DNA from: an uncultured Gemmatimonadales bacterium
Lineage (GTDB): Bacteria; Gemmatimonadota; Gemmatimonadetes; Longimicrobiales; RSA9
Direction of reading: 5' to 3'
Assembly: GCA_963708135.1 (NCBI GenBank)
Contig: OY970192.1
Span: 800,001 to 864,000, forward strand
Length of the DNA stretch: 64,000 nt
This document shows, piece by piece, positions 9,108 to 40,670 of this stretch. Both the position numbers and the translations under genes were made by a program. A model generated the notes under the pieces. It was not told the DNA's origin. It made no database searches and saw only the letters and a list, made by a program, of their open reading frames with translations. How positions within the stretch are numbered: position 1 is the first letter of the stretch; the number at the start of each line of letters is the position of its first letter.

Positions 9108-9212
9108 ACGCCGAAGAAGAAGGTGCTGGTCGGCATCGCCCGCAAGGCGACGCGCATGATGTTCCGGGTCGCGGTCGAGCGGCGGCTGTACACGGCCGAG
9201 CCGCCGCGGTAG
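9108..9212 (+). pseudogene. IS110-family recombinase C-terminal remnant (unit 0), cut by IS21
   Basis: TPKKKVLVGIARKATRMMFRVAVERRLYTAEPPR matches C-termini of the intact copies. Confidence 0.9.
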
Positions 9213-9710
9213 GATGACGTAGCAGACAGGCTGGGGCGGGGCGCCGCTGCGCGCTCCCGCTTCCGGCCCGTGCACCGGGTCCAGGCCGGGGCAGAGCGCG
9301 CGAAGATGGATCGAAGGGACCCGCGTGGTCCGCTTCCGAGTGTGGCATTCGCGTACCCCGGCCCTGAGCACGCTCAAGTCTCCCATGTGGGGGTGTTGAG
9401 GGCCCTGCGGGGCGCCTCCGAATACCGACGCGATCGAGCTACGCGTGCTCATGTGGCCGGGGTGCGATTTGACAACAGGAGTCATCCTTTCAGGCGAGAG
9501 GAGCACCGCGTGCTCGCCGGGATGGTGGCCGGGCGTGGATCCGAGGCAGCACGTGAGGGGAGCGATGTCTCCGCCTCCGTCGAGTCGGCTGATCGCGCCC
9601 GGTCCACTCCCGTTGCTGTGACGCGCGGCTGAGGGGCCGGTGCGGATCCGATAATCTGGTCGAGGCGCACCCCGTGCGGCCTCCAAGGTGGCACTCGATC
9701 GCACCGGCCC
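9213..9710 (+). ncRNA. Putative multi-loop bridge/seek RNA region, unit 0 (4 internal loops)
   Basis: Non-coding region downstream of IS110 gene; stem-c-N12-GAGG..GCCTCC-N12-stem hairpins; conserved GGTGCGATTTGACAAC at 9461-9476; transcribed strand inferred. Confidence 0.7.
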
Positions 9711-9717
9711 ATCTGGG

Positions 9718-10505: not shown

Positions 10506-10815
10506 ACCCCTCTACCGCGATTGCCCCGCCTTCCGGCCGACCCAGCAATTCAGCGATCTTATTCGTCTCAAACAGCGTCCCGTACCGTGACCCTGCAGGT
10601 GCAACCCTGAACCGTATCGCTGGGCTGCCGATCGGCTGAAGCCGGGTGGTCGATTCATCGACGTGCTCGGGATTCGCCTCCAGCCTGGCCGGCGTTACGG
10701 TCAACGGTTCGGCTCCGAGCTCCCCACGGCAGGCCTCGGCCGCCGTCTGACCGCGTTTTCTGTCATCGTCCGGTTCACGGTACGTCCCCGGCTCACCTCA
10801 ACCGGGAGACGCACC

Positions 10816-12048
10816 ATGAGCCACTACAAGAAGCGCCAGAGGGCCCAGCGAGCCGCCGCCGTGGTCGGGATCGACGCCGCAAAGCGCAGGCACGCGATGG
10901 TCGTGCGGCCGCGCGGCGGCGAGGACTCGACGCCGATGTTCTTCGAGGCGACGCGCGCCGGCTTCGGCAAGGCCCTGGAGGAGATCGAGGCCTGCGCCCC
11001 TGACGCCGAGCGGCACGAGATCCTGGTCGGCATCGAGTTCGCCGGGAACTACGGCTTCACGCTGGCGCACCACTTCGCGGCCGAGGGCCTCCAGGTCGTG
11101 AGCGTGCTCGGCTCGCACTCGAAGAAGTGGAAGGAGGTCGTCCACAACCAGAGCCTGAAGAGCGACCCGGCCGACGCCGTCACGATCACCGACCTGGCCA
11201 GCCAGGGGCACTTCGTGATCTTCCCCTTCCTCGAGCAGGTATTTGCAGACCTGCGCTACCTCGTGAGCCTGCGCGAGCGCCTGACGAAGCTCCGCACGGG
11301 CGCCATCACGCGCCTCAAGGACGTGCTCCAGGTCGTGTGGCCGGAGTTCGACCGCCGCTTCGGCAACTTCAACCACAAGACGCCGATCGCGCCCCTGGAC
11401 GCCTTCCCGGGGCCCGACGCGCTCCTGAAGGCGTCCAAGCGCCGCATCATGACCGTGCTCCGGAAGGCGAGCCGCGGCCACCTCGGCGAGAAGGCCTATC
11501 AGGAGCTCCGGCACATGGCGGAGCACACCGTCGCCCTTCCGGGGGCCCAGGGCGTGCTCAAGGACGAGATCGCCCTCCAGCTCGAGCTCCTCGCCACCTA
11601 CGAGCGGCAGATGGCCGAGGTCGAGCGGCTCATGGCGGAGTCTGTGTCGAGCGTGCCTGAGGGCGAGGCACTCCTTACGATCCCGAAGCTCGGGGCCGTC
11701 ACCGCGGCGACGTTCCTCGGCTCGATCGGCGATCCGCAGGTCTACGAGTCCAGCCGTCAGGCACTCCGCGTCGGCGGACTGTCGCTCGTCGTCCACGAGA
11801 GCGGCAACCGGCACGGGCGTCCGCGGCTCTCCAAGCGGGGCCGCCCCGAGCTCCGGCGCCAGATGTACATGTTCGCGCTCCGGAGCGTCTCCAACCGGTC
11901 CCTCTACCACGACTACTACCGCCGCATGCTGGAGCGGAACGGTGGCGAGAAGATCCCCGCGCTGGTCGCCGTGATGCGCAAGGCGGCGCGCCTCATGTTC
12001 AGCGTCGCGAAGGACCGGCGCGCCTTCACCATGGAACCACCGCGGTAG
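10816..12048 (+). CDS. IS110-family (DEDD) recombinase, apparently intact
   Basis: GIDAAK, GIEFAGNY, KSDPADA (D-E-D-D); IPKLGAVTAA, HESG serine, SKRGRPELR. Confidence 0.95.
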   Translation: MSHYKKRQRAQRAAAVVGIDAAKRRHAMVVRPRGGEDSTPMFFEATRAGFGKALEEIEACAPDAERHEILVGIEFAGNYGFTLAHHFAAEGLQVVSVLGSHSKKWKEVVHNQSLKSDPADAVTITDLASQGHFVIFPFLEQVFADLRYLVSLRERLTKLRTGAITRLKDVLQVVWPEFDRRFGNFNHKTPIAPLDAFPGPDALLKASKRRIMTVLRKASRGHLGEKAYQELRHMAEHTVALPGAQGVLKDEIALQLELLATYERQMAEVERLMAESVSSVPEGEALLTIPKLGAVTAATFLGSIGDPQVYESSRQALRVGGLSLVVHESGNRHGRPRLSKRGRPELRRQMYMFALRSVSNRSLYHDYYRRMLERNGGEKIPALVAVMRKAARLMFSVAKDRRAFTMEPPR

Positions 12049-12604
12049 CTCGGGGGAATAAACGGTGTGAGAGGGTCGGCTGGCGCGGACGCGCGCCGGC
12101 CCTCTCCGACCCAAGTGCACCCGACGCACGCCGGGGAGTTGCGCCCGAGAATGGATCGAGGAGGCCGCCCTTCGAGCGGCGGCCGGCCTCCGAATGCGGC
12201 ACACGCGCACCCCGGCCGGGAAGGCGCCCCAGTCTCCGAGATAGGGGTGTCGAGGGCTCCCAGGAACGCTGGCAGAACCGCGTTCCCGAGCGCCTCCTAC
12301 TTTGACCGCGATCGAGCTACGCGTCTTCATGCGGCCGGGGTGCGATCTGACAACACGGTTGCGGTTTCGCCCGGCGGGAGCGGCTCGCCGGGCGCGGACA
12401 CTCGCCTGGACGCGGATCCCGAGCGGCACTCGAGGGGAGCACAGCCTCTGCCTCCGAACAGGCCCCAGATCGCGTCCCGGCACCCTCTCCCCCGCCCCTG
12501 TGCGAGCAGACGGGGAAGAGGTGCACGAGGGGCCGGTGCGGATCCGATAATCCGGTCGAGGCGTCATCCGACGGCCTCCGAAGAGGCACTCGATCGCACC
12601 GGGC
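12049..12604 (+). ncRNA. Putative multi-loop bridge RNA region, unit 1 (4 loops)
   Basis: Same hairpin/internal-loop architecture; guide GATAATCCGG at 12546-12555. Confidence 0.75.
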
Positions 12605-12892
12605 CTACTCCGAAATCCCAAAGCGTGCTCTCGCATCCTCGGGAGCCACATTGATGAGCAACGGCGGTCCTCCACCGGGTAATTCGCTGTGGGGATAAGT
12701 CAGTACCCAAAAGCGTCCGTCCTTGGCGCGATACATGACGCTCCACCCATCATCTGAGCGCGCCACTTCCGTGATTTCGTGCGTAGTGATGATACGCTCA
12801 ATTCGACGGCATTCGTCGTCAGGGACAAGGCGGCCGTCCTGATCAACCCAAGTTCCGGTGATGACCGTTTCGTCTGGCTGAATGAGAGTCAT
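12605..12892 (-). CDS. Immunity protein, Imm27-like
   Basis: GW..Y....DGRFW.L.YP.SE..GGGPP.L motif recalled for Imm27; overlaps CT stop. Confidence 0.75.
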   Translation of the reverse strand: MTLIQPDETVITGTWVDQDGRLVPDDECRRIERIITTHEITEVARSDDGWSVMYRAKDGRFWVLTYPHSELPGGGPPLLINVAPEDARARFGISE

Positions 12893-13404
12893 GGGATCTT
12901 CCTTATCAGGGCCTCAAACGGAATCGTGCCGTTGGGGATTACGAATTCACGAGCACCACCTGAAGTAAGTCCACGCCCGACGAAGCCCGGTGTCTTTCGG
13001 CCGACGGGAGAAGCAATCGCCTCGATGGCCGAACTCGGGAATTCAATGATGTTGAAGCCGAAGGGGCTTTCTGGGATCCCCAACCGAGTGGCAATCTCCT
13101 TCGACCCCATCCCCGCTATATCCTCGGCGGCCGTGACAAACACATCTTCGGCGCCAGCTCGCCCCAACGTTGCTGGAACAATATTCCCGGGAACGACGCG
13201 AGCAAGGACACTTGGGACAGCATTGGCTACTTCCCGACCGAGCAAGCGCCTTCCGAAGTCCGCAATGCCGCCTGCAATTCCGCCCGCGAGAACAGCGATG
13301 GGATCGAAAAATCCGGCGCTTTCAAGGCCTGGTTCGCCGCCGGGACACCCCGTATGCCACTCAGTCTCTGGGGGACACAATCCGAAGGGATCTGTATATA
13401 CCGG
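12889..13404 (-). pseudogene. Orphan Rhs CT, Ntox10-like (unit 1 cargo)
   Basis: PVYTDPFGLCPPETEWH..; C-terminal GLTSGGAREFVIPN; family call from memory. Confidence 0.75.
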
Positions 13405-13574
13405 ACGCCTCTAACCCAATGCGCCCCGTTTCGGCCTCAGACACCTCCCGCCGGACTCTACCTCCAGCCGTCTCAATCAGCCGTCCTGACACCCCCCCGA
13501 ACACCGAAGCCCTTCAGCATACCACCTAAAGTTCCATCGCCTCAGGCGCCCTCAGCCGCCGTCGATCCGCCCGG

Positions 13575-15011
13575 GGAGGTATTTTCAGAAGTTGTGGATC
13601 GCGTGACTTGATGGGGTGAAAAAAGGCGGCGTATCCTTCCGCGTTGGTTCGTTCACCGAAACGCGAAGCCCCGCTGGCCGGCGGGGGGAAGGAGACGCCA
13701 CCCATGCTGAAGCTATTCATGGACGCCCCTGCGGAGCAAGCGGGGGGGCTGGAGTTCACGCTGGACGAGCTCGCGCGTGAGGGCGCGCGGCGGATGCTGG
13801 CGGTGGCGCTGGAGGCGGAGGTGGCCGCCTACGTGGAGCGCTACCGGGGCGAGCGGGACGAGGCGGGACACGCGCTCGTGGTGCGCAACGGGAAGGCGCG
13901 GCCGCGACGCGTGACGCTCGGGGCCGGGACGGTGGAGGTCGCCGCGCCGCGGGTGAATGACCGACGGGTGGTGGAGGGGACGCGCCAGCGCTTCACGAGC
14001 GAGATCCTGCCGCCGTACATGCGGCGCAGTCCCAAGGTGGCGGAGGTGCTGCCGGTGCTCTATTTGCGCGGGCTCTCGACCGGGGACTTTCAGGAGGCGC
14101 TGCGGGCGCTGCTCGGAGCGGAGGCCACAGCGGGGCTGTCGCCGAGCGTCATCAGCCGCCTGACTGGAGCTTGGGAGGAGGAGTACCGGGCCTGGCGGCG
14201 GCGCGATCTCTCGGACCGAGACTACGTCTACGTCTGGGTGGACGGGGTGCATTTCCGGATCCGGCTGGAAGAGGACCGCCTGTGTGCGCTCGTCGTGATC
14301 GGAGTGCGCCCGGACGGGACCAAGGAGCTCGTGGCCATCGAGGACGGCTACCGCGAATCGACGGAGAGCTGGGCGGCGCTCCTGCGCGATCTGACGAGGC
14401 GCGGCATGCGCCCTCCCGTCCTGGCCGTAGGGGATGGCGCGCTCGGCTTCTGGGCGGCCGCGCGCGACGTCTGGCCCGACACGCGGGAGCAGCGCTGCTG
14501 GGTGCACCGGCTGGCCAACGTGCTGGACAAGCTGCCCAAGCGGCTCCAGCCGAAAGCGAAAGCGCATCTGCGCGAGATCATGAACGCGGAGAGCCGCGCG
14601 GCGGCCCAGGAGGAGATTGAGCGCTTCCGCGAAGAGTACGGCGCCAAGTACCCCAAGGCGGTGGCGTCCCTCGTGCGCGACCAGGACCAGCTCCTGGCCT
14701 TCTTCGACTTCCCGGCCGAACACTGGAAGCATCTGCGCACCACCAATCCGGTGGAGAGCACCTTCGCGACCGTGCGGCTCCGGCAGCGGGTGACGAAGGG
14801 AGCGGGCTCGAGAACGCGCGGGCTGGTGTTCGCCTACAAGCTCCTGGACATGGCCAGCCAGCGGTGGCGGCGCCTCGACGGCGCCCACCTCCTCCCCCTC
14901 GTTCGGGCGGAGGTCCAGTTCACCGACGGCATCATGCAAGAGAGGGAGGATCAAGAAGGGCGGAGGAGCGCCGCCTGATCACCCCAATCCACAACATTTG
15001 ACAATAGCTCT
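13575..15011 (+). mobile_element. IS256-family insertion sequence with 8-bp TSD CCGCCCGG
   Basis: Imperfect TIRs GAGGTATTTTCAGAAGTTGTGGAT / GAGCTATTGTCAAATGTTGTGGAT; TSD at 13567-13574 and 15012-15019. Confidence 0.9.
13704..14978 (+). CDS. IS256-family transposase
   Basis: RNG, LYLRGLSTGD, YVWVDG, GDGALG, QRCWVH, RTTNPVES. Confidence 0.95.
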   Translation: MLKLFMDAPAEQAGGLEFTLDELAREGARRMLAVALEAEVAAYVERYRGERDEAGHALVVRNGKARPRRVTLGAGTVEVAAPRVNDRRVVEGTRQRFTSEILPPYMRRSPKVAEVLPVLYLRGLSTGDFQEALRALLGAEATAGLSPSVISRLTGAWEEEYRAWRRRDLSDRDYVYVWVDGVHFRIRLEEDRLCALVVIGVRPDGTKELVAIEDGYRESTESWAALLRDLTRRGMRPPVLAVGDGALGFWAAARDVWPDTREQRCWVHRLANVLDKLPKRLQPKAKAHLREIMNAESRAAAQEEIERFREEYGAKYPKAVASLVRDQDQLLAFFDFPAEHWKHLRTTNPVESTFATVRLRQRVTKGAGSRTRGLVFAYKLLDMASQRWRRLDGAHLLPLVRAEVQFTDGIMQEREDQEGRRSAA

Positions 15012-15162
15012 CCGCCCGGATTCCGTCACCACTCCGGCGGTGATACGCTTCCGGGTTCGGGCTCAAACCCGGCAGGCGCCGCTCACAACGCCATTCAGCC
15101 CGATTCCGCCATCGGTGCGGCCCACGGTACCGCTCTGGTCCACTTCAACCAGGAGCGAGACC

Positions 15163-16398
15163 ATGAGCCGTTTCGAGAAGCGCCGCCGGGCCCAGCGCGC
15201 CGCCGCCGTCGCCGGAGTGGACGCGGGCAAGAGGAAGCACGCGATCGCCGTCCGGCCGCGCGGCGGCGAGGACAGCACGCCGCTCGAGTTCCAGACGACG
15301 CGGGAGGGCTTCGAGATCGCCGTCCACGCGATCCTCGACAACGCGCCCGACGCGCGGCCGGAGGACGTGCTGGTCGGCATCGAGTTCGCCGGCAACTACG
15401 GCTTCACCTTCGCGCACTTCCTGCGCGACCGCGGCTTCCAGGTCGTGAACGTGCTCGGCGCGCACAGCAAGCGCTGGAAGGAGGTCGTCCACAACCAGGG
15501 GCTGAAGAGCGACGCGAAGGACGCGCTCACGATCACCGACATGGTGGCGCAGGGCGCCTTCGTCGGCTTCCCGTTCCTCGAGCAGGTCTACGCCGACCTG
15601 CGCTACCTGGTCAGCATGCGCGAGCGCCTGACGAAGCTCCGGAGCGCGACGATCGCGCGGCTGAAGGACGTGCTCCAGGTCGTCTGGCCGGAGTTCGAGC
15701 GGCGCTTCAGCAACTTTAGCAAGAAGACGCCGATCGCGATCCTGGAGGCGTTCCCCGGGCCGGATGCGTTCCTGCGCGCACCGAAGCGGCGCGTGCTGAA
15801 GGTGATCCGGGAGGCGAGCCGGGGTCATCTGGGCGCGGCCGCCTACGAGCACCTGCGGTGCGCGGCCGAGGACACCGTGGCGCTCCCCGGCGCGCAGGGC
15901 GTGCTTGCGCAGGAGGTCGGCCTCCAGCTCGATCTCTTGGCCTCCTACGAGCGCCAGATCGCCGAGGTCGACCGCCTCATGGCCGAGCGGCTCGTGGACG
16001 CGCCCGAGGCCGAGGCGCTCCTGTCCGTCCCGAAGCTCGGCGCCGTCACGGCCGCCGTGTTCCTGGGCTCGATCGGCGACCCGCGGGCCTACGACTCCAG
16101 CCGGCAGGCGCTCAAGGTCGGCGGCCTCGGGCTCGTCGTGAGCGAGAGCGGCGCCCAGCGCGGCCGGCCGCGGCTCCCCAAGCGCGGCCGGCCCGAGCTC
16201 CGGCGCCAGATGTACATGTTCGCGGTGCGGAGCGTGAGCCGGGGCGGCCTGTTCCGGGCGGAATACGAGCGGGCGCTCGAGCGCAATCCGAACACGCCGA
16301 AGAAGAAGGTGCTGGTCGCGCTCGCGCGGAAGGCGACGCGGCTCATGTTCGCGCTCGCGAAGGAGCGGCGGCTGTACACGATGGAACCGCCGCGGTAG
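15163..16398 (+). CDS. IS110-family recombinase (unit 2)
   Basis: GVDAGK, GIEFAGNY, KSDAKDA, SESG; PKRG instead of SKRG. Confidence 0.95.
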   Translation: MSRFEKRRRAQRAAAVAGVDAGKRKHAIAVRPRGGEDSTPLEFQTTREGFEIAVHAILDNAPDARPEDVLVGIEFAGNYGFTFAHFLRDRGFQVVNVLGAHSKRWKEVVHNQGLKSDAKDALTITDMVAQGAFVGFPFLEQVYADLRYLVSMRERLTKLRSATIARLKDVLQVVWPEFERRFSNFSKKTPIAILEAFPGPDAFLRAPKRRVLKVIREASRGHLGAAAYEHLRCAAEDTVALPGAQGVLAQEVGLQLDLLASYERQIAEVDRLMAERLVDAPEAEALLSVPKLGAVTAAVFLGSIGDPRAYDSSRQALKVGGLGLVVSESGAQRGRPRLPKRGRPELRRQMYMFAVRSVSRGGLFRAEYERALERNPNTPKKKVLVALARKATRLMFALAKERRLYTMEPPR

Positions 16399-17045
16399 GT
16401 TGGGGGAATCAACACCATGGGAGGGCCGGCTGGCGCGGTGCGCGCCGGCCCTCCTACAGTGCACCAGACGCAGGCCGGGGGATGGAGCAGAAGAATCCAT
16501 CGAAGGGGCCGTCTCGCACGAACGTGAGGCCTGCTTCCCAAGGTCGGACCCGCTCCCCCTGACCCAGAGTTCGCCACAGTCTCCGAGGAAGGCGTGTCGA
16601 GGGCCACGCGCGGCAGACGCCGCCACGGTGCCTCCGAGGACTTGAGGGTATCGAGCTACGCGATCTCGAGTGGTCTGGGTGCGATTTGACAACTCAGCGC
16701 TTGCCTTCGCCGTCGCGGCGTCGAGCCGGCCGCGACGGAACGGGTGGCGTGTGCCCGGCGCGGATCCGACATCCAGCCTGAGGCGGCCCAGCCGGCCTCC
16801 CATGATGGACCTGATCGCGTCGGGCACCGTCCTCCTCATGGGCATCGGCCCGGCATGGACCCGATAATCCGGATGAAGGGCGCTCTGCGGCCTCCCATGT
16901 GGGACTCGGTCGTGCCGGGCCCCGCCTCCCCGCCGGGCTGGCCGACGGGGAGGTGAGCCGAACCGGGGCCTGTGTGGATCGGGGGATCCGACAGAGGCGC
17001 GAACATCGCGGCCTCGGAAAGTGACACTTGATCGCATCGGCCTCT
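16399..17045 (+). ncRNA. Putative multi-loop bridge RNA region, unit 2 (5 loops)
   Basis: Two-loop core closed by GCACCAGAC/GTCTGGGTGC stem plus three stand-alone hairpins. Confidence 0.75.
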
Positions 17046-17055
17046 TCGCTGGTCG

Positions 17056-17457
17056 TCATCGGTACTCCTCCTCCAAGCGTTGCAGTAGGGCAGTAAACTC
17101 AGCTACAGCCTCCGGAATCCCCTCGCCCAAGTCCTCGTGGAAGTAGTCGCGGAAGAGTAGATCTGGCCAGATCCGCGTCTGCCCAGGCGCGGTGGTGTCG
17201 ACGCGCCAATATCGGGAAGCCCGGCCATCTACTATCTCGAACAGTGAGATCGGTGCCCAGGAGAGCTTCCCATGCTCATTGACGAGGTGCAGCCATGTCC
17301 CGGTGCCCAAGACGTTGGAGTCAACCGAGAATTGGACTCCAACTACCATGTAGGTCTTCCCCAATTCCAATGCGAACTCATGGGCATCAGCAGCTACTCG
17401 GCCCATCCGCATCCGCTGCTCGGCGGTCGGCGAAATGGAGACACACTTGGCTCGCAT
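17056..17457 (-). CDS. Putative immunity protein (unit 2 cargo)
   Basis: Start overlaps CT stop (TAATG); low GC. Confidence 0.75.
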   Translation of the reverse strand: MRAKCVSISPTAEQRMRMGRVAADAHEFALELGKTYMVVGVQFSVDSNVLGTGTWLHLVNEHGKLSWAPISLFEIVDGRASRYWRVDTTAPGQTRIWPDLLFRDYFHEDLGEGIPEAVAEFTALLQRLEEEYR

Positions 17458-18011
17458 TATCTGAATACCGTTTTGAATTCCACCCGCACACCGGTTACGA
17501 GGTTTTCGACCCAGTGTGTCTCGAACCGGACTCCGTCGTCTGCCCTAAATATGCTACTACTCTTCTTGACCCAGTCTCCTGCCTCGCCTCCGTACTGCTC
17601 AGCTATCCTGCCAGCATCCCGAAACACGGTTCCGGATCGACCACCGGCAAAGATGGTCCCTCGCTCCGCCATCTGCGCTTTGCTGGCGATCTGTTTCGCC
17701 AGGTTGAGGGCTTCGCCACTTCTGCCGACGCCGCCGATGAAGGCCCCGGGCGAGCCGCACAAAACACCTTCACCACAACCGCCCCCCATAAGGTCGTTGA
17801 AGGTCTGTTCTCCGGCTTCAAGAGCTGCGCCCACGTTCAGCGCCCAAGAACGGCCGGTTCGAGACCCCCAGTTGGCCAGTAATTGGTAACAGGATTCATC
17901 GGAACCGGTGAAGGGACACAGCCCGAACGGATCGGTATAGGAGGCCGGATTATCCCCGTTGTAGCTGTAGAGGTTGAGCCCGCCCGCAAGTCCAATGGGG
18001 TCTTCCTGCGT
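17457..18011 (-). pseudogene. Orphan Rhs CT with retained core tail TQEDPIGLAGGLNLYSYNGDNPASYTDPFG
   Basis: Translation; C-terminal RDAGRIAEQYGG..DWVKKSS..ETHWVEN..G..VEFK (predicted nuclease-like, unassigned). Confidence 0.85.
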
Positions 18012-18139
18012 TAATATCCGCTCAGACGCCTCCGGCCGACTCCCGAGCCGCTATCCCTCTGTCGTTTCTTTCTTTAGCCGCTTCCTTCCCGCCTTCTTCG
18101 TCGTAGTTTTCCGCTTCAGACCTGGATGCGTGTTTTCCC

Positions 18140-18361
18140 CTACGCAAAGAGGAGGCGTCCCTTCGGCGGTGGTACCTCACGACCGATGTCGCGCGCCGTC
18201 TCGATCCACTCCTCGATCACCGTCTGCACGTTGCCCAGCGCCTCGCGATACGTGGCACCGTCGGCGGCACAGCCCGGCAGCTCGGGCACCTCGGCGATGT
18301 AGGCATCGTCCTCCTCGCTCCAGTAGAGGATGATCTCGTAGCGTGGGTCAGTCTTCGCCAT
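18140..18361 (-). CDS. hicB: HicB-family antitoxin
   Basis: YEIILYWSEED.AYIAEVPELPGC.ADG.T..EAL..PPPKG. Confidence 0.9.
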   Translation of the reverse strand: MAKTDPRYEIILYWSEEDDAYIAEVPELPGCAADGATYREALGNVQTVIEEWIETARDIGREVPPPKGRLLFA

Positions 18362-18614
18362 CGGCCGTGCCTCCAAGCTTGTACGTCACGATTACACGCC
18401 GGACCTGCTTCACCTGATACGGCTTCGCCAGCTTGCCCCTGGGCTGCAGGTTCAGGATCTCCGCGATGCCATCACGCAAGTAAATGTGATGGCTGCCGCG
18501 GATCCGCTCCTCGAAGCCGAGCGCATGGAGCAGACGCCGCAGATCCTGGAAATCGATGGCGCTGTCGGAGGTTCCCCGCAGCAGCCGCGCCAGGATCTTG
18601 TCGATCTGCGTCAT
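18348..18614 (-). CDS. hicA: HicA-family toxin
   Basis: LGFEERIRGSHHIY..ILNLQP..AKPYQVKQVR. Confidence 0.9.
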   Translation of the reverse strand: MTQIDKILARLLRGTSDSAIDFQDLRRLLHALGFEERIRGSHHIYLRDGIAEILNLQPRGKLAKPYQVKQVRRVIVTYKLGGTADGED

Positions 18615-24074: not shown

Positions 24075-27044
24075 CGATTCCAGATGTTAAGATGCGTGGT
24101 CGCGTTGGGACCAGGGTTACCCAGCGCGTCGAGATAGTTGCGAGCTGCATTCATGATGCGCAGTTGCCAACCATTTTCCCGCCGCATTAAGCGAACTTCT
24201 TCGCCCGTTCCATTCGTGAAAAGGTAGCCACTCTTATTCTCCGTCAGTCCCATCACAAACCCGTTCTCTTTCAGAATTGCGCGAATTCCAATGATCGACT
24301 CATCCGCAAGTCCGCCTCCCTCCGAGAACAGCGCGCGTAGCCCGGCGCTCGCTCCCCGTAGCCCCCGCCCGACGGCACCACCACCCACCGTGAATGCCGC
24401 CATTGCGAAGCCGCGTCCGGCGTGACCACTCCCGATATCGAAGCCAGCATCAAACGCTGCGGTGATCGGATTGACATCGTTGATCGCATTCAACCCAGCT
24501 GCGGCATTGAGCACCACGCCGCCCAGGCCACCGCCACGCTGCGCTCCCCAATTTGCCGCTTTCTGCAAGCAATCTTCAATCGGCGGGCACAATCCGAACG
24601 GGTCGGTATAAGACGCGGGGTTGTTGCCCGCATACGCATAGAGGTTAAGCCCGCCGGCAAATCCGATGGGGTCTTCCTGCGTGAACCTCCCCAATCTGGC
24701 GTCGTAGTAGCGGTTGCGGAAGAAGGCTCCGGTCTCCTGGTTCGAGTCGCCGTTGCGGGCGGGGGCGAAGCTGTAGCTTTCGCGGATGGCACCCGACTGC
24801 GAGCCCCAGGTACTCCACGCCGGGAGCTCGTTTCCGTTCGTGTCCGTGATGCAGTTCTCGCCCTGCGGGCCCTGGAAGCTGAACAGTCGTTCGCGATGCG
24901 TGATGAAATATGCGCGCTTGTCGTTCAGGCTGCCGAGGGGACACGCAGCGTTGCCGTACATCATCAGCGGGTCGTCGAGCCCCGGCCCGTCCACGAACTC
25001 GACCGTCGAGTGCTCGATCACGTTCTGACCATCGTAGAAGGTCTCCGCGCCGGAGTGGGCATAAGCGCCGCGGATCCGCCGGCCCAGGCCGTCGTAGCGG
25101 AAGAAGGCGGTATCGGGGTGAGTGCCGGAGAGCTGGCCGGCGGCGCTGTAGTAGCGGTGCCAGGTGTAGGCGGTCCCGGCGTAGGTGCCCTGCTCGAGCG
25201 TCTCGTTGCCGTTCGCGTCGTAGCTGAAGTCGACGCTCTCCGGACCGGAGACGCCGCTGTAGTAGCGGGTCCGGCGGGTCACCTCGTTCGAGAGGCCGTC
25301 GAGCTGGAAGAGCACGCTGTCGGCGCACAGGCTGCCGCGCACGCACAGGTACTCCTTCACGCGGTTGCCGGCCGCGTCGTGGACCAGGCTGTCCATGGAG
25401 GCGTAGGTGCCGTTCTTCATCTGGTCCGTGTAGCGGATCTTCCCCCGGTGGTCGTAGGCCCAGTGGCTGACCCACGTCCCTCCGTTCGTCTCCCGGCCCC
25501 GGTTCACGACCGAGTCCGGCCGGCCCGCGGCGTCGTAGGCGAAGGTAAGGTCCACGGGCGTGTAGCCCGTCGTCGCATTGACCGAGACGACGCGCGCGAG
25601 CTGCCCGTCCTTCGTGTAGCCGTAGCTCGTCTTCGTGCCGTTGGGCAGCGAGACCGTGTCGCGCCGGCCGAGCGCGTCGTAATGGAAGGAGATCACCTCG
25701 CCCGCCGGCGTCTGGATCTGGCTGACGAGCCCGCCCGGGCCGAAGGTCGAGGTGTAGGTGCCCTTCGGCGTGGTCCGCGTGTGCCGGCCCGCCCACTGGT
25801 AGGCCGACGTGTACGTCCGCGTCGTTCCCGACCACTTGTGGAGCTGGACGCTCGAGGCGAGGGTGCCCTCGCGGTTGAAGGTGCGCGTGACCTTCGAGCT
25901 GTCCTCGTCGAGCACGGTCGGGTTGCCGGCGGCGTCGTACTGGAGGTCGATCGTGGTGCCGCGCACGCCGAGGACACCGCCCTGGTAGGTGCTCGAGAGA
26001 ATCCGCTGCTTCGGGCGGTCGTCGCCGTCGTAGTGGATCGTGACGGTGCTGCCGTCGCGGTTCGTGCCCAGGGTGAGGTTCCCGGCGAGGTCGTAGGCGT
26101 CGAGCTGGGTGGCCCCCTTGGCGTCGACCATTGCCGTGTCCTCGCCCAGGGCGTTGTACTGCCAGATGCGGGCGAGCAGGCGGGGGTCTGACGCGCCAAT
26201 GCGGTTACCATCCGCATCGAACGTGAAGCGGCTGGGGCGTATGAGGCCGTGGTCGTACTGGTCGACCTCGGTCCGGTTGCCGAGAAGGTCGTGCACGAAG
26301 GTCGTGCTGTCACCGGCGGGGTCGCTCACGCGGCGCAACAGCCCGTAGGCGTCGTAGCCGTAGCTGGTGGTGTCGCCGCCGGGCGTGGTGCTCGAGAGCA
26401 GGTTGCCGGTGCCGGAATCGTCGTTGCCGAGCATCGTGGTGAGATCCTGCACGCCGGCGCCGTAGACCGGCACGGAGTGCTCGGTCGCGCTCGCCACCTG
26501 GCCGCGGCTGTTGTACGTGAAGCTGGTCTCGTGCCCGCGCGGGTCCACGACGTTGTCCAGCGTGCCGTCCGTGGCGTTGTAGGTGAAGGTGGTGGTGTCC
26601 CGGTGCGTCCCGTCGCGCGGCTCGATCAGCTTCCACGGCTTGTCAGGCGCCGCCGTCGAATACCGATAGGTCACCGAATCCGCGCCGGCGCTCGACGTGA
26701 GGTCCGCGGCGTAGGCGACCCGGCCGGAGCCGTCGTAGGCGGTCGTGGTGGTGCGGCCGTTCGGCCAGTCGACCTCCTTCGTGAGCAGGGGGAAGCTGGC
26801 GTCGTGCTTCAGGACGGTTGTATTGCCCACGGCGTCGACAACCGTGTCCGGCGCGCCGAAGCGGTCCAGGTAGAACTTCGTGATCTGCAGGGTGTCCGTG
26901 CGCGGCCCGTGCACCTCGAAGTCGGCGCTCGCGGCCGCGTAGCTGGCGTTGAGGCCGGTGGCGGCGGTGGCAAGGCCGCGGCTCGCGAGAGGAGTAAACG
27001 TCGTGACCGGCGTTCCGGCCGTGACCTGCGGCAGGGTGTCGGCC
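24071..27044 (-). pseudogene. 5'-truncated Rhs paralog fused in frame to the integrative-element CT
   Basis: YD repeats, RYYD..GRFTQEDPIG..NNPASYTDPFG, CT ending YLDALGNPGPNATTHLNIWNR; Rhs homology stops at 27044. Confidence 0.9.
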
Positions 27045-27293
27045 TCCCACGATGGACCTGATCGCGTCGGGCACGCCCCTCCTTCGCACTCATGGCCATC
27101 GACCCGGCATGGACCCGATAATCCGGGCGAGGCGCGCTCTGCGGCCTCCCATGTGGGACTCGGTCGTGCCGGGGCCCCACCTCCCCGCCGGGATGACCGA
27201 CGGGGAGGTGAGCGGAACGGGGCCGGTGTGGATCCGATAATCCGGTCGAGGGGTCTATGACCGCCTCCAATCTCGGACTCGATCGCACCGGCT
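27040..27293 (+). ncRNA. Remnant bridge-RNA-like region (2.5 loops) of a unit whose recombinase was deleted
   Basis: Homologous to 16793-17045 and 40047-40292. Confidence 0.75.
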
Positions 27294-27596
27294 CTACTCG
27301 CTTGGTTGGTTCCGCAGCAAGTCCCAGAGGCGTTCGCGAAGATGATCGAGGGTGGCATTCGCAACCGCTTCATCATCAACTGAATGGCCGTTTGCGCGGC
27401 TAATCCAAAGATCGGTGAAGCTGCCCATGCCTCCGAACAGTGCGCGGGCGTCATCGCAAATGTCCGGGCAATTTAGTTTTGATCTATGCTGGTTCAATAT
27501 TGAATCAACCATCGAAGCCCACCCGGTTTCGTTGTGTCTACGTAAAAACTGCTCAATATCCTTGAGCACAGCTTCAACGTCCGCGTGTGCCGCCAT
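27294..27596 (-). CDS. Putative immunity protein (GGMGSF.D motif)
   Basis: GGAGG RBS; directly downstream of CT. Confidence 0.75.
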   Translation of the reverse strand: MAAHADVEAVLKDIEQFLRRHNETGWASMVDSILNQHRSKLNCPDICDDARALFGGMGSFTDLWISRANGHSVDDEAVANATLDHLRERLWDLLRNQPSE

Positions 27597-36207: not shown

Positions 36208-36697
36208 AGGACGAGGTACGTCTCCTCCTCGAGCTGCTGGCGATGTACGACCGGCAGATCGCGGCCGTGGAGGAAGCGATGGTCTTCGCCCTCCGTCGGG
36301 CCCCGGAGGCGAAGGCGCTGATGTCGATCCCCAAGCTCGGCGCGGTCACCGCGGCTGTCTTCCTGGGTTCGATCGGCGATCCGAGGGCGTACGAGTCGAG
36401 CCGGCAGGCGCTCCGCGTGGGTGGCCTCTCATTGGTCGTGCAGGAGAGCGGGCTGCTCCGCGGCAAGCCGCGCCTCAGCAAGCGGGGCCGGCCCGAGATG
36501 CGACGGCAGGCGTACATGTTCGCGGCCGCAGCGTGATGAAGGGTGGGCTCTACCGGGAGGCGTTCGACCGCGCCCTGGCCGAGAACCCGCAGAAGCCGAA
36601 GAAGAAGATCCTGGTGGCCCTGGCGCGGCGCGCCACGAAGCTCATGTTCAGCGTCGCGCGGGACCGGAGGCTGTACACGCCGGATGGCCCGAAGTAG
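36208..36697 (+). pseudogene. IS110 recombinase 3' fragment (unit 3), frameshifted
   Basis: DEVRLLLELL..IPKLGAVTAA..QESG..SKRGRP; frame break near 36530; then KPKKKILVALARRATKLMF. Confidence 0.9.
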
Positions 36698-37218
36698 GAT
36701 TCCGGCAGGTGAAAGAGCGGAAGGGCTGCGGCATCCTGCCGAGCCCTCCCGCGAGCACCAGACGCAGGCTGGAGAGTGGAGCCGGCAATCCATCGAAGGA
36801 GTTGCAGAAGCGCTCGGCGCCGCAGCTCGCTTCCGAATGCTGGAACGCTCCCTCCGGCCCAGAGCCCGCTCAAGTCTCCGAGGAAGGCGTGTCGAGGACC
36901 CTCCGGGGTGCCTCCAAGGAACTGAGGGTATCGAGCTACGCGAGCCCGAGCGGTCTGGGTGCGATTTGACAACTCCGTATACTACCTGCCGAGACCCCGA
37001 CCGGGCGGTCGCGGCACCAGTGGCGCGTGCCCGGCGTGGACCCGCCATGTCCCTTGAGGCGGCGTTGCCGGCCTCCGATGGTGGACTCGGTCACGTCGGG
37101 CAGCGCGCTCTTTCACGTCAAACACCCACCGACAGCGCTGCCCGGCATGGGTCCGACAATCCGGTTGAGGCGCGTCCTGCGGCCTCCGATACCGGACTCG
37201 ATCATGCCGGGCAGCTTC
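36698..37218 (+). ncRNA. Putative multi-loop bridge RNA region, unit 3 (4 loops)
   Basis: Same architecture; guides GACAATCCGG / GATACCGGAC in the last hairpin. Confidence 0.75.
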
Positions 37219-38125: not shown

Positions 38126-38440
38126 ACGCCTCTAACCCAATGCGCCCCGATTCGGCCTCCGATCAGCCTACCTCCGACGCCACCTCCCGCCGTCTCAATC
38201 AGCCCTCCTGACACCCTCCCGAACAGCGAAACCCTTCACCATACCACCCGCAGCTCCACCGCCTCAGGCGGGGTCGACTGCCTTCCATTCACCCGGATTC
38301 CGCGCCCGATCCTGGCGGTGATACGGTTCCGGGTTCCGCCTCCGTCCCGGCGGCCCCGGCTCAGAGCGCCATAGAGCACGATTCCGCCATCGGTGCGGCC
38401 CACGGTACCGCTCTGGTCCACTTCAACCAGGAGCGAGACC

Positions 38441-39652
38441 ATGAGCCGTTTCGAGAAGCGCCGCCGGGCCCAGCGCGCCGCCGCCGTCGCCGGAGTGGAC
38501 GCGGGCAAGCGGAAGCACGCGATCGCGGTCCGGCCGCGCGGCGGCGAGGATAGCACGCCGCTCGAGTTCCAGACGACGCGAGCCGGCTTCGAGACCGCGG
38601 TCCGCGCGATCCTCGAGAACGCTCCGGGCACACGACCCGAGGACGTGCTGGTCGGCATTGAGTTCGCCGGCAACTACGGCTTCACCTTCGCCCACTTCCT
38701 GCGCGACCGCGGCTTCCAGGTCGTGAACGTGCTCGGCGCCCACAGCAAGCGCTGGAAGGAGGTGGTCCACAACCAGGGGCTGAAGAGCGACCCCAAGGAC
38801 GCGCTCACGATCACCGACATGGTGGCGCAGGGCGCCTTCGTCGGCTTCCCGTTCCTCGAGCAGGTCTACGCCGACCTGCGCTACCTGGTCAGCATGCGCG
38901 AGCGGCTGACGAAGCTCCGGAGCGCGACGATCGCGCGGCTGAAGGACGTGCTCCAGGTCGTCTGGCCGGAGTTCGAGCGGCGCTTCAAGAACTTCAGCAA
39001 GAAGACGCCGATCGCGATCCTGGAGGCGTTCCCCGGGCCGGATGCGTTCCTGCGCGCACCGAAGCGGCGCGTGCTGAAGGTGATCCGGGAGGCGAGCCGG
39101 GGTCATCTGGGCGAGGCCGCCTACGAGCACCTGCGGTGCGCGGCCGAGGACACCGTGGCGCTCCCCGGCGCGCAGGGCGTGCTTGCGCAGGAGGTCGGCC
39201 TCCAGCTCGATCTGCTCGCGTCCTACGAGCGCCAGATCGCCGAGGTCGAGCGCCTCATGGCCGAGCGGCTGGTGGACGCGCCGGAGGCGCCCTCGCTCCT
39301 CTCGGTGCCGAAGCTCGGCGCCGTGACGGCCGCCGTGTTCCTCGGCTCGATCGGCGACCCGCGGGCCTACGACTCGAGCCGGCAGGCGCTCAAGGTCGGC
39401 GGCCTCGGGCTCGTCGTGAGCGAGAGCGGCGCCCAGCGCGGCCGGCCCGAGCTCCGGCGCCAGATGTACATGTTCGCGGTGCGGAGCGTGAGCCGGGGCG
39501 GCCTGTTCCGGGCGGAATACGAGCGGGCGCTCGAGCGCAATCCGAACACGCCGAAGAAGAAGGTGCTGGTCGCGCTCGCGCGGAAGGCGACGCGGCTCAT
39601 GTTCGCGCTCGCGAAGGAGCGGCGGCTGTACACGATGGAACCGCCGCGGTAG
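38441..39652 (+). CDS. IS110-family recombinase (unit 4) with 8-aa in-frame deletion
   Basis: Close paralog of 15163-16398; SESGAQRGRPELR lacks RLPKRGRP. Confidence 0.9.
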   Translation: MSRFEKRRRAQRAAAVAGVDAGKRKHAIAVRPRGGEDSTPLEFQTTRAGFETAVRAILENAPGTRPEDVLVGIEFAGNYGFTFAHFLRDRGFQVVNVLGAHSKRWKEVVHNQGLKSDPKDALTITDMVAQGAFVGFPFLEQVYADLRYLVSMRERLTKLRSATIARLKDVLQVVWPEFERRFKNFSKKTPIAILEAFPGPDAFLRAPKRRVLKVIREASRGHLGEAAYEHLRCAAEDTVALPGAQGVLAQEVGLQLDLLASYERQIAEVERLMAERLVDAPEAPSLLSVPKLGAVTAAVFLGSIGDPRAYDSSRQALKVGGLGLVVSESGAQRGRPELRRQMYMFAVRSVSRGGLFRAEYERALERNPNTPKKKVLVALARKATRLMFALAKERRLYTMEPPR

Positions 39653-40292
39653 GTTGGGGGAATCAACACCATGGGAGGGCCGGCTGGCGCGGTGCGCGCC
39701 GGCCCTCCTACAGTGCACCAGACGCAGGCCGGGGGATGGAGCAGAAGAATCCATCGAAGGGGCCGTCTCGCACGAACGTGAGGCCTGCTTCCCAAGGTCG
39801 GACCCGCTCCCCCTGACCCAGAGTTCGCCACAGTCTCCGAGGAAGGCGTGTCGAGGGCCACGCGCGGCAGACGCCGCCACGGTGCCTCCGAGGACTTGAG
39901 GGTATCGAGCTACGCGATCTCGAGTGGTCTGGGTGCGATTTGACAACTCAGCGCTTGCCTTCGCCGTCGCGGCGTCGAGCCGGCCGCGACGGAACGGGTG
40001 GCGTGTGCCCGGCGCGGATCCGACATCCAGCCTGAGGCGGCCCAGCCGGTCTCCCATGATGGACCTGATCGCGTCGGGTACGCTCTTCCTCATGGGCATC
40101 GGCGCCGGCATGGATCCGAGAACCCGGACGAGGCGCGTTCTGCGGCCTCCCATGTGGGACTCGGTCGTGCCGGGCCGCACCTCCCCGCCGGGCTGGCCAA
40201 CGGGGAGGTGAGCGGAACGGGGCCGGTGTGGATCCGATAATCCGGTCGAGGGGTCACGGACCGCCTCCAACATCGGACTCGATCGCACCGGC
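39653..40292 (+). ncRNA. Putative multi-loop bridge RNA region, unit 4 (5 loops)
   Basis: Loops 1-3 carry the same guides as unit 2; loops 4-5 differ; GATAATCCGG at 40236-40245. Confidence 0.75.
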
Positions 40293-40670
40293 CTATTTCT
40301 TTCGCCGCATCGATTCCTCTGTTTGGCTACAGACCGCGGTCATCGCTGGCCCCATGTACGACCGGGCAGTTTTCATCCAGTCCGAATTGTCGGTTAGCCT
40401 CTCGCAAACGCTGAATGCGGCAATCTCCTGCACCTTCGGATCCGGATGGGCGGCCAGTATTTCGAGGGAGTCGAAGACTCTCCGAATCTCGGCCCCGTCA
40501 TTCCGCTCGATCGCGGCGATAAGATGCGGGGTGAGCAGATCACCATAGATGATGTGAGGGCCGGGACGTTCAGTGCCCCACCATTCCAGTTCTTTTTCGT
40601 ACTTTTCCCTCAACTCTGGTATGCTGGTGATCAAGTGATCCACAACAGTCTCGTATTTGATCTCTGTCAT
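40293..40670 (-). CDS. Cognate immunity protein of the full-length Rhs
   Basis: Start overlaps Rhs stop (TGATG). Confidence 0.8.
   Translation of the reverse strand: MTEIKYETVVDHLITSIPELREKYEKELEWWGTERPGPHIIYGDLLTPHLIAAIERNDGAEIRRVFDSLEILAAHPDPKVQEIAAFSVCERLTDNSDWMKTARSYMGPAMTAVCSQTEESMRRKK

Follow-up and report, generated by a model that had tools for sequence, protein, structure and literature searches.

Organization of the locus

The window, i.e. the whole 64,000-nt stretch of DNA analysed in this work, contains six guide-type non-coding regions, which belong to three full and three truncated copies of an insertion sequence lying among Rhs genes. The segment at 16399-17045 is predicted to be the 3' non-coding guide-type region of one of these, an IS110-family element whose transposase is encoded at 14998-16398. 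The full copies are referred to as A, B and C and the truncated ones as units 0, 3 and 5; in the same numbering, copies A and C are units 2 and 4. The features are listed below.

9108..9711, + strand: unit 0, truncated IS copy with the end of the transposase gene, core and 2 hairpins
10506..12611, + strand: IS copy B; transposase 10663-12048, guide region 12049-12606 with 2 hairpins
12605..13403, - strand: displaced module left of copy A; Ntox10 toxin tip (PF15520, E 2.7e-45) and Imm27 immunity gene (PF15590, E 7.9e-18)
13404..13548, + strand: first part of the copy A left end; junction with the displaced Rhs tip between 13403 and 13404; homologous to 38126-38270 of copy C
13549..15014, + strand: IS256/Mutator-family insertion in the copy A left end (PF00872, E 1.2e-64 for 13644-14978), interrupting the A-C homology
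14998..16398, + strand: copy A transposase (PF01548, E 2.8e-23; PF02371, E 1.8e-16)
17045, + strand: copy A right end, the last base of hairpin 3
17056-17457, - strand: putative immunity gene right of copy A
17457-17954, - strand: toxin tip right of copy A, beginning D-N-P-A-S-Y-T-D-P-F-G-L
17945-17954, - strand: intact N-P half-site GATAATCCGG right of copy A, in an Rhs gene
27040..27295, + strand: unit 5, truncated IS copy (right-end fragment) with part of hairpin 1 and hairpins 2 and 3; an Rhs core fragment adjoins on the left
36300..37214, + strand: unit 3, truncated IS copy with a 3' transposase part containing stops, core and 2 hairpins
38126..40295, + strand: IS copy C; transposase 38393-39652, guide region 39653-40295 with 3 hairpins
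40293-40670, - strand: DUF7674 immunity gene right of copy C
40670-45796, - strand: full-length Rhs gene directly right of copy C, with its N-P site at 41161-41170 (whole block 40293..45796)

The IS256/Mutator-family insertion at 13549..15014 does not belong to the guide system. The transposases of all three full copies contain the PF01548 and PF02371 domain pair, with the DEDD RuvC-like N-terminal domain and the C-terminal Tnp domain that characterize IS110-family recombinases. When the copy A transposase was compared, as the sole query, with the PDB, it matched IS621 (8wt6, E 1.5e-9) and ISCro4 (9t56, E 1e-8), the similarity to IS621 being low and confined to the C-terminal domain. The guide regions are 550-650 nt long and lie 3' of the transposase stop codon in all copies, which is the layout of the IS1111 subgroup. 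Sub-terminal inverted repeats of the IS1111 type (7-17 bp) were sought in copy C, and none joining both ends was present among the 25 longest inverted pairs listed for 38150-40330.

Searches with general RNA and signal models gave little at this locus. Rfam returned no match at the gathering score across the window and just two chance-level matches (E 0.3-0.7) in 16350-17100, and a promoter and terminator scan of 14900-17200 yielded one promoter-like and one terminator-like site, both at chance level. Relatives of the IS110-type element, with 51-100% protein identity, occur in at least nine genomes or contigs. A 16-mer scan of genome contigs gave 117 stretches, nearly all of them chance matches, with L030, L084 and L112 (the same as L002) as the only relatives; a stricter metagenome scan for relatives gave three loci. 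A covariance-model search of 150 other genomes of the class found nothing at E 0.001 among the 31 candidates scored per genome.

Fold of the guide region

The guide region of copy A can be divided into a two-loop core and three stand-alone hairpins.

16459..16698, + strand: two-loop core with a GCACC/GGTGC closing stem and the conserved tail GATTTGACAAC at its end
16473..16564, + strand: core loop A, of hairpin-like build; 5' strand 16489-16499, 3' strand 16541-16551
16567..16667, + strand: core loop B; 5' strand 16587-16598, complementary to the first bases of the element left end
16751..16827, + strand: hairpin 1; 5' strand 16768-16779, 3' strand 16801-16812, AC at positions 9-10; 78 bits
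16846..16922, + strand: hairpin 2; 5' strand 16863-16874, opening with GATAATCCGG; 3' strand 16896-16907, CATGTGGG followed by AC; 76 bits
16965..17045, + strand: hairpin 3; shortened 5' strand 16982-16993; 3' strand 17016-17029 with ..GTGAC followed by AC; 54 bits

The initial annotation of this DNA had described bridge-RNA-like regions, each with a two-loop core closed by a GCACC/GGTGC stem and followed by two to three stand-alone hairpins, and covariation supports both the core and the hairpins. The consensus fold of the core comprises 61 pairs in seven sequences, 19 of which show compensatory changes. The 16-nt motif GGTGCGATYTGACAAC is found at all five positions originally named (9461, 12339, 16678, 36958 and 39932), five matches against 0.07 expected from shuffles. 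A covariance model of the hairpins detects 14 of them in the 5.4-Mb genome, each about 78 nt in length, all on the + strand and all within the six non-coding regions (2, 2, 3, 2, 2 and 3 per region); a loose regular expression recovers 13 of the 14.

The fold of the hairpins was evaluated with a set of 25 from the window and six other loci. Its 19 pairs are formed in 97.3% of 474 cells, compared with 83.0% in shuffles, none of 500 of which equalled this value, and 11 of the 19 pairs show changes on both sides. When the hairpin partners were slid by 1-3 columns as a control, only 34-41% of the cells were paired. The 26 G-U pairs among the 474 cells would be A-C mismatches on the opposite strand, and all 14 hairpins share the strand of the transposase. 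The dinucleotide AC, which had been noticed at positions 9-10 of most right strands, is present there in 21 of the 25 hairpins (five spurious rows of the regular expression left out).

The 5' strand of core loop B varies together with the left end of the element. In the type of A, C and L002, GGCGT lies opposite ACGCC, and in the type of B, L126 and L128-131, GGGGTG lies opposite CACCCC of the left end. Because of this match to the element's left end, core loop B is assigned, as predicted from the paired strands, as the donor loop. The 3' strand of loop B resembles the starts of toxin tips weakly, as judged by eye.

Insertion into Rhs genes

The Rhs genes carry the features of YD-repeat proteins, namely RHS repeats (PF05593 in three ORFs), a core ending in N-P-x-x-x-x-D-P-x-G-L, a variable tip and an immunity gene. 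The genome contains six N-P-A-S-Y-T-D-P-F-G-L sites, and the toxin and immunity partners found are Ntox10/Imm27, DUF7674 and DUF6966. Every copy in the window with an intact left end is located in an Rhs gene in antisense orientation. In 11 of the 13 elements for which the left end was available (A, B, C, L002, L126, L128-L131, L133 and L135; the exceptions are L132 and L134), the left flank corresponds to an Rhs tip start in reverse complement, and the break falls directly after the N-P (or D-P) codons. The suggestion that the Rhs N-P motif is the target, made at first from the guide strands, has thus gained evidence of another kind, as the elements are actually inserted at that motif.

The junctions place the tips precisely. 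The left junction of copy B (between 10505 and 10506) adjoins an in-frame tip reading A-S-Y-T-D-P-F-G, and that of copy C (between 38125 and 38126) an in-frame tip reading P-S-Y-T-D-P-F-G-L; from the junction, these displaced tips are open for 170 and 168 codons, respectively. The Ntox10 tip left of copy A has a frameshift at its S-Y-T-D-P-F-G start. The first two bases of the element are AC in 10 of 10 left ends. An alternative junction at the sequence CCCGGATTCC, about 100 nt inside the left end, was dropped, as the real junction lies further left.

Guide strands and target half-sites

The 5' strands of the terminal hairpins carry GAYAAYCCN, which corresponds to the upstream half-site. The sequence GATAATCCGG occurs exactly where it had been reported, on the + strand at 12546, 16863, 27117, 27236 and 40236 and on the - strand in the Rhs gene at 41161-41170, and once more on the - strand at 17945-17954, making seven exact matches in the window against 0.08 expected. 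The left-strand variants GATAAT-, GACAAT- and GAGAAC-CCGG also proved to be no more than one mismatch (0-1) from an N-P codon variant in the genome, and the joined left and right readings (D-N-P-A-S etc.) could be reproduced from the hairpin strands. The 9-mer at 16982-16990, which underlies the G-D-P reading, is very frequent in the genome by chance, and a genome-wide search with GGGGATCCG was swamped by chance matches. The terminal hairpin of a relative carries GGGGATCCGG beside an Rhs gene that reads G-G-D-P at the site, and the 5' strand of L133, GGGGATCCG, sits opposite a G-D-P site.

We compared the guide strands with the half-sites in ten elements from eight assemblies or contigs, and both strands agree with them. 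The 5' strands agree with the closest intact Rhs site to the right at 74 of 90 positions (permutation p 0.03). For the 3' strand, agreement of its first 8 nt with the left flank of the same element reaches 63 of 80 positions, where the mean of cross pairs is 3.5 of 8; this value was reached by none of 100,000 permutations, and the first six positions alone give p 3e-5. These p-values overstate independence, since the elements fall into four related subfamilies; the strings used in the permutations were transcribed by hand. Within the closest subfamily alone, 2 of 24 permutations equal the match of 3' strand and flank. Examples of guide and flank are CACGTGAC/AACGTGAC, CACGCGAC/AACGCGAC and GTGTTGAG/GTGTTGAG. 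The 3' strands of copy C match its own flank at 5 of 8 (hairpin 2) and 3 of 8 (hairpin 3) positions, and the right strands of the A/C-type loops fit the local tips in this genome poorly (4-5 of 8).

The 3' strand of the terminal hairpin therefore corresponds to the displaced tip of the same element over its first 8 nt, followed by AC, the first two bases of the element. With respect to orientation, the 5' strand complements the right half-site as read on the IS-sense strand, and the 3' strand is identical to the IS-sense left half-site; this is the order of the IS1111 subgroup, with the complement of the top strand 5' of the match to the bottom strand, as the rule is given in part of PMC11187229. 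The strands of the loops covary with the target and donor half-sites, as is characteristic of the IS110 family.

Because their strands match both half-sites and the right strand covaries with the element's own insertion flank, the terminal hairpins are predicted to be real target loops for the Rhs N-P site, and hairpin 2 of copy A is the putative native terminal target loop of the A/C type. The original claim that the hairpins bind Rhs targets thus holds for the terminal ones; hairpin 1 and core loop A are built in the same way, and a cognate was found for neither. These two loops match their own flanks at 3-5 of 8 positions, the same as cross pairs, and no cognate stood out genome-wide. A genome search with mismatches allowed for the sites of loop A, hairpin 1 and the terminal loop gave 30-730 loose matches per loop, none of them meaningfully placed. 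Taken with the domains, the folds and the guide matches, the first description as a bridge-RNA-like guide region of an IS110-family element is well founded: the region is very probably an IS110-family guide-RNA region of IS1111-like layout, in an element specialised on the boundary between Rhs N-P and toxin tip.

Right flank and possible cargo

In an IS110-family insertion both target halves would flank the element; here the left flank is the downstream half-site and the right flank has no upstream half. The right flank is an immunity gene in every case, never the expected half-site, and in none of 13 right flanks (L133 left out) did an upstream half-site beside the right end rise above shuffles at the 5% level. 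Apparent remnants of a half-site at the right ends of B, L126, unit 5 and L128 looked convincing by eye but were rejected, as none of them beats shuffles. Since the half-site is missing, simple transposition of the IS by itself into an unbroken site, whether cut-and-paste or copy-and-paste, fails to explain the present copies. The pattern fits an element that would carry a toxin tip and immunity gene as cargo.

According to this possible mechanism, which falls under the guide-loop explanation and does not compete with it, the IS and the adjacent tip-immunity pair would move as a unit: a circle joining the tip start to the left end would recombine with an Rhs N-P site, fuse the carried tip in frame and displace the old tip. 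We give it nearly an even chance. Of 14 elements checked, 10 (C, A, unit 5, L002, L127, L128-L131 and L133) have a single tip and a single immunity gene between their right end and an intact N-P site at a distance of 0.8-1.5 kb, and in three more (B, unit 3 and unit 0) the left end of the next IS occupies that place. The absence of the half-site from the 13 right flanks and the fit of the 5' guide to the distant N-P site (74 of 90) point the same way. However, four IS bodies that were compared are 88% alike and their right-hand regions only 55% alike, implying that the cargo is not inherited with the IS and that frequent replacement would be needed. The fit of the loop B 3' strand to the tip starts is weak and was judged by eye, and no circle junction was observed.

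Origin of the third hairpins

The third hairpin of copy A (16965-17045) looks foreign or chimeric by sequence comparison. It has the lowest model score, 54 bits against 66-89 bits for the others, and its ..GTGAC followed by AC is also found in the relatives L128-L131. We consider it plausible, if somewhat short of an even chance, that third hairpins did not evolve as a multi-guide array but are leftovers: terminal hairpins that belonged to previous or different IS subfamilies at this place and became attached to a younger IS body through recombination in the conserved stem. They would then perhaps be inert or redundant, and the native set would consist of the core, hairpin 1 and a single terminal target loop. 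Up to 16980/40234, copies A and C agree at 94%, and their homology stops within the third hairpin. The terminal hairpin of copy B, which is 76%-diverged, resembles the third hairpins of copy C and unit 5 (86-89%), and hairpin 3 of copy A combines the motif of the distant L128-L131 type with a shortened 5' strand and the low score. Three hairpins occur in only 3 of 13 elements with a complete right-hand guide region (units 2, 4 and 5), where the third belongs by type to a different subfamily. On the other hand, the third hairpins of copy C and unit 5 are fully folded (82-84 bits) and carry exact GATAATCCGG, with the neighbouring Rhs site matched at 9-10 of 10 positions; a leftover origin would also be compatible with function if the whole region is transcribed.

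That the hairpins act as DNA, as folded single-strand recombination sites or alternative right ends giving modular circles as in ISPpu9/ssr9, is very unlikely. In its favour, every hairpin ends in the stem sequence of the true right end, modules are repeated, and ISPpu9 circles vary in module content (part of PMC12288879); against it, this reading leaves the tracking of half-sites and left-end bases by the free strands unexplained, no solo hairpins occur away from IS copies in this genome, and the G-U pairs favour RNA of one strand.

Proposed mechanism

Under the preferred reading as a guide-RNA region, the target site would lie between the conserved N-P codons and the next four codons, those before D-P-x-G-L, where the exchangeable tip begins. 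The guide RNA would be read on the + strand, probably continuing from the transposase gene, and would fold into a core with two internal loops and then into hairpins of the same build, each with an outer stem, an internal loop with two free strands and an inner stem-loop. The 5' strand of the terminal hairpin would pair with the IS-sense strand of the upstream half-site (..GAY AAY CCN), and its 3' strand with the other strand across the first 8 nt of the tip, continuing into the AC that equals the first two bases of the left end, possibly a handshake-like feature. The 5' strand of core loop B would pair with the left end as donor.

We infer that the RNA is produced and that the recombinase binds it. 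Given their shared build, core loop A and hairpin 1 may be further guide loops, and the third hairpins may confer a second specificity. Since the elements lie between a toxin-tip/immunity pair and a displaced tip, recombination presumably sets a new tip and immunity gene behind the Rhs core and pushes the old tip downstream; such displacement would build the IS-tip-immunity arrays at 9.1-18 kb and 36-41 kb.

Several loops may jointly widen the target range. In its fullest form, which we put forward tentatively and think rather more doubtful than probable, the region would represent a natural multi-loop bridge RNA system serving as an RNA-guided toxin-tip exchanger, with the tip and immunity gene as cargo and with stand-alone target loops adapted to the tip starts and N-P codon variants that different Rhs alleles possess. 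Insertion would occur in frame with displacement of the old tip, and several loops would address several alleles or synapse two Rhs sites.

Comparison with known systems

To our knowledge, the bridge RNAs and seekRNAs described so far combine a single target loop with a single donor loop, and in nature they are directed mostly at repeats or other mobile DNA. The present system resembles the IS621/IS110 bridge RNA (Durrant et al. 2024, PMC11208160; Hiraizumi et al. 2024) in its DEDD and Tnp recombinase, its separate donor loop and its internal-loop strands, which pair with opposite strands of the left and right half-sites; the additional dinucleotide also recalls the 'handshake' pairing described in part of PMC13626964. 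Unlike in IS621, the RNA lies after the gene rather than before it, the loops number four to five rather than two, the target loop stands alone as a hairpin at the extreme right end, and the target is an Rhs coding motif.

The IS1111-type seekRNA, as described in part of Siddiquee et al. 2024 (PMC11187229), is a 70-100-nt unit whose 5' segment complements the top strand and whose 3' segment complements the bottom strand. The present regions share with it the position downstream of the transposase gene, the same order of the guide segments and natural reprogramming between relatives. They differ in having several units in one 550-650-nt region plus a two-loop core and a right flank without the half-site, and sub-terminal inverted repeats were not found in copy C. 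Part of the bioRxiv report 10.1101/2025.10.25.684509 on CazIS110-1 describes a stand-alone target-loop RNA that works together with the bridge RNA, which is similar in that the target-binding loop is a separate RNA unit cooperating with a bridge RNA; there, however, the separate loop is a shortened product of the two-loop RNA, whereas here the loops are encoded as extra hairpins. ISPpu9/ssr9 (PMC12288879, in part) likewise belongs to the IS110 family and has an RNA module downstream and a modular end with repeats, but Ssr9 is dispensable for transposition and the targets are REP sequences, according to the same part, whereas the modules here carry target half-sites. The portion of a 2026 preprint on bridge-RNA variants available to us (10.64898/2026.10.21.760802) presents two-loop forms only, with longer guides. 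Some IS1111 members target integron attC sites, as cited in a part of PMC11208160, and are seated, like the present elements, at cassette boundaries.

A search of the literature by titles and keywords found nothing on bridge RNA or IS110 elements aimed at Rhs genes. The displaced tips with their immunity genes form arrays like the known Rhs orphan toxin-immunity arrays. Orphan Rhs tips are usually put down to homologous recombination and retain a core piece. Unlike these, the displaced tips described here start exactly at the codon after N-P and adjoin the IS left end.

Implications

The element family described here is aimed at a conserved Rhs coding junction and encodes its target loop as a separate end hairpin beside loops of the same build. 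Through the covariation of guide and flank, natural guide-target pairs are at hand for testing. Should the extra loops be active, bridge recombination would have a natural precedent for guides that are multiplexed or split. For the Rhs loci themselves, the system offers a site-specific, RNA-guided route to displaced-tip arrays, and it may help to explain how toxin tips are swapped and accumulate.

IS110-family elements and their insertion site in Rhs genes

The source genome is a single contig of 5.4 Mb with 72% G+C. Within the window, three full copies (A, B and C) and three truncated copies (units 0, 3 and 5) of an IS110-family element are found, as follows.

10663-12048, + strand: transposase gene of copy B (PF01548 + PF02371)
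14998-16398, + strand: transposase gene of copy A (PF01548 + PF02371; IS621/ISCro4 match)
38393-39652, + strand: transposase gene of copy C (PF01548 + PF02371)
9108-9711 (unit 0), 27040-27295 (unit 5) and 36300-37214 (unit 3), + strand: truncated copies (n = 3)

The PF01548 and PF02371 domain pair is present in all three full-copy transposases, and that of copy A, the only one of the three queried, weakly but specifically matches the transposases of IS621 and ISCro4. Between copies A and C the similarity is 94%, and copy B is about 76% like either of them. An IS256/Mutator-family element (13549-15014; PF00872, E 1.2e-64) is inserted within the left end of copy A, which should have abolished the mobility of this copy as a unit.

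The true left ends, set by aligning the left sides of the copies, lie further left than the first homology indicated. Directly outside them stands the reverse complement of an Rhs tip start, ..(A/P)-S-Y-T-D-P-F-G.., the tip being the exchangeable toxic end of the protein. The Rhs core in this genome ends in G-D-N-P-A-S-Y-T-D-P-F-G-L-C-P (six such sites), and the junction with the IS falls exactly after the N-P codons. The displaced tips remain in frame from the junction for 168 codons beside copy C and 170 beside copy B; next to copy A, the displaced tip is a frameshifted Ntox10 toxin and is accompanied by an Imm27 gene. This left flank occurs in 11 of the 13 elements with an available left end (the exceptions being the related loci L132 and L134), always antisense to the Rhs gene. 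It extends to L002 (69% protein identity), to L126, a metagenome relative of copy B, and to L128-L131, L133 and L135, which are 51-58% identical and belong to other families of the class. Insertion at the Rhs junction is an addition to the initial annotation, which had dealt with the guide region.

At A/C-type left ends (38125; L002), the adjoining displaced tip starts with Pro (CCC/CCG) in place of the Ala (GCC/GCG) of intact Rhs genes. The base that differs adjoins the junction and agrees with the hairpin guide; it could be a footprint of strand exchange. A further, degenerate trace of this IS, composed of the left end and pieces of the transposase gene (genome 2795105-2795634, - strand), is found beyond the window, some 10 kb away from the sixth Rhs N-P site in the genome (genome 2784760, + strand), which reads GGGGACAACCCGG, one mismatch away from two window hairpin guides. 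In another metagenome relative (L127, 1379-2208), a HigB/HigA-like toxin-antitoxin pair cuts the IS short and stands between it and an orphan Rhs tip.

Structure of the guide region

The non-coding region of copy A (16399-17045) lies 3' of the transposase gene. The sequence features listed by the initial annotation are all present, at counts far over chance: the conserved 16-nt motif has 5 matches against 0.07 expected, and GATAATCCGG has 7 against 0.08, five on the + strand in non-coding regions and two on the - strand in Rhs genes. The core, a closing stem around two internal loops (A and B), folds with 61 consensus pairs, 19 of them with compensatory changes, in seven sequences (from the window and three other loci). 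The stand-alone hairpins, 25 of them from the window and six other loci, share a fold of 19 pairs in which 97.3% of cells are paired, compared with 83.0% after shuffling (0/500 shuffles reach the observed value) and 34-41% with slid partners. Changes on both sides are seen at 11 of these 19 pairs, and the two internal-loop strands of 12-13 nt are unpaired in the consensus. G-U accounts for 26 of 474 paired hairpin cells and all 14 hairpins of the genome are on the transposase strand, which fits an RNA read in the transposase direction.

A single-stranded tail 3' of the core (..TTGACAAY..; 16683-16693) is conserved in all copies and in relatives with as little as 51% identity. Its sequence is similar to the opening six bases of the N-P guide (GAYAAY), and the stem preceding it is nearly a copy of the hairpin 5' stem; the core may derive from the same hairpin unit.

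Guide strands and half-sites

The 5' strand of the terminal hairpins is identical to the Rhs-sense upstream half-site (GAYAAYCCN) and therefore complementary to the IS-sense strand. The 3' strand repeats, in IS sense, the 8 nt of left flank that adjoin the element and then continues with AC, the dinucleotide with which every left end begins. Over ten elements it matches its own flank at 63/80 positions, non-own pairs averaging 3.5/8. No permutation out of 100,000 reaches this match, and the first six positions alone give p = 3e-5, although such p-values overstate independence because the elements fall into four related groups; within the closest group alone, 2 of 24 permutations equal the observed match. 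Variable positions change jointly in strand and flank, e.g. GT, GC and CT in L128, L129 and L130, and L135 matches at 8/8. The 5' strand agrees with the nearest intact Rhs site at 74/90 positions (p = 0.03), and in L133 both the guide and the adjoining Rhs gene read GGGGATCCG (G-D-P). The limit on independence holds for this p-value too, and the strings for both comparisons were hand-copied from outputs.

The 5' strand of core loop B is complementary to the left end and varies with it (GGCGT/ACGCC, GGGGTG/CACCCC). The complement of the IS-sense strand comes first in the guide order, and the same order, top-strand complement first, is reported for IS1111-type seekRNAs (PMC11187229).

There is good in-silico support for the terminal stand-alone hairpins as target loops and for the Rhs N-P site as their true target. 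The assignment of this motif to the stand-alone loops in the initial annotation holds: both strands fit the half-sites, and the elements are inserted there.

The tip-immunity unit on the right side

Within 0-36 nt after the last hairpin comes the 3' end of an immunity gene on the opposite strand, and then a toxin tip. An intact Rhs N-P site is located 0.8-1.5 kb beyond the right end in 10 elements, and the next IS left end is there in three more. The repeated unit is therefore the IS with one tip and one immunity gene, between the Rhs core and the displaced tip. A normal IS110 insertion is expected to leave the upstream half-site at the right end; in the search for this half-site next to the right end, 0 of 13 right flanks beat shuffles.

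The simplest reading, to which this recurring unit points, is that the tip-immunity pair is cargo of a recombination unit that would run from the left end to the N-P site. On insertion, the core would acquire a new tip by fusion, and the old tip would be displaced downstream. However, four IS bodies are 88% alike and their right-hand regions only 55%, so the cargo would need frequent replacement, e.g. by homologous exchange between the conserved core and the IS. Alternatively, insertion might be guided by the left half only, for which the "half-match" recombination reported for IS621 (10.64898/2026.08.31.748434) is a precedent.

At copy B (12607-12611), unit 5 (27296-27301) and the L126 right flank, the opposite-strand immunity ORF extends into the bases just past the last hairpin with the same ..GAG TAG end, and its stop codon is supplied by the element edge. 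Elsewhere in the window, a tandem duplication of about 10.2 kb (17913-28095 and 28096-36199; 98% identity) starts at an Rhs core-end fragment and contains the following features.

18140-18614: small HicAB-like pair
18667-18739 / 23509-23585: 75-nt inverted repeats
18885-19847: tyrosine-integrase-like ORF
19844-22921: primase-like ORF with zinc-ribbon and Toprim domains

The duplicated segment resembles an integrative element trapped between Rhs repeats. Positions 1001-2000 are 91% G+C, with many overlapping direct repeats (1116-1826).

Origin of the extra loops

In build, core loop A and hairpin 1 are like the terminal loops, and AC stands at the corresponding place in all of them but hairpin 1 of unit 0 and of the B-type copies. 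Their strands match their own flank at 3-5/8, as cross pairs do, and no cognate site for them came out of a loose search of the genome. A third hairpin is confined to copies A and C and unit 5, and in each of these the last is of a foreign type. Those of C and unit 5 are 86-89% like the copy B terminal hairpin. That of copy A (16965-17045) combines the ..GTGAC+AC strand, which is characteristic of the distant L128-L131 group, with a shortened 5' strand and the lowest model score; A-C homology stops inside it, and it looks chimeric. These foreign types suggest that the native region comprises the core, hairpin 1 and a single terminal target loop, and that the third loop was acquired, or left over, as a second target loop.

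The third loop may nevertheless be functional, provided that transcription covers the whole region: in C and unit 5 this hairpin is intact and carries the exact local half-site. Left-strand variants found in the window (GATAAT-, GACAAT-, GAGAAC-CCGG) are within 0-1 mismatch of N-P codon variants of this genome, which agrees with, and falls short of proving, the earlier idea that several guides cover a site conserved in protein but degenerate in DNA. In the A/C-type loops, the 3' strands are a poor fit to the local tips. The loops of one region may plausibly act as a functional multi-guide array.

Comparison with known systems

The protein, the structured RNA and the guide complementarity all agree with the family, and the initial reading as a bridge-RNA-like region was right. 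The system departs from the known pattern at two points: none of the 25 longest inverted pairs listed for copy C joins its two ends, as sub-terminal inverted repeats would, and the right flank has no half-site. We infer that the system operates in the manner of bridge RNAs or seekRNAs. Our literature search found no publication on an Rhs-aimed IS110-family element, and none that describes a bridge RNA with three or more guide loops. A preprint reports separate target-loop RNAs that act together with a bridge RNA (10.1101/2025.10.25.684509), and modular right ends are reported for ISPpu9 (PMC12288879).

The observation itself is real and far from chance. In contrast to the described systems, there are four to five guide-type loops here, the target loop forms a hairpin of its own at the extreme end of the element, a coding motif is targeted, and the element is linked with toxin-tip arrays.
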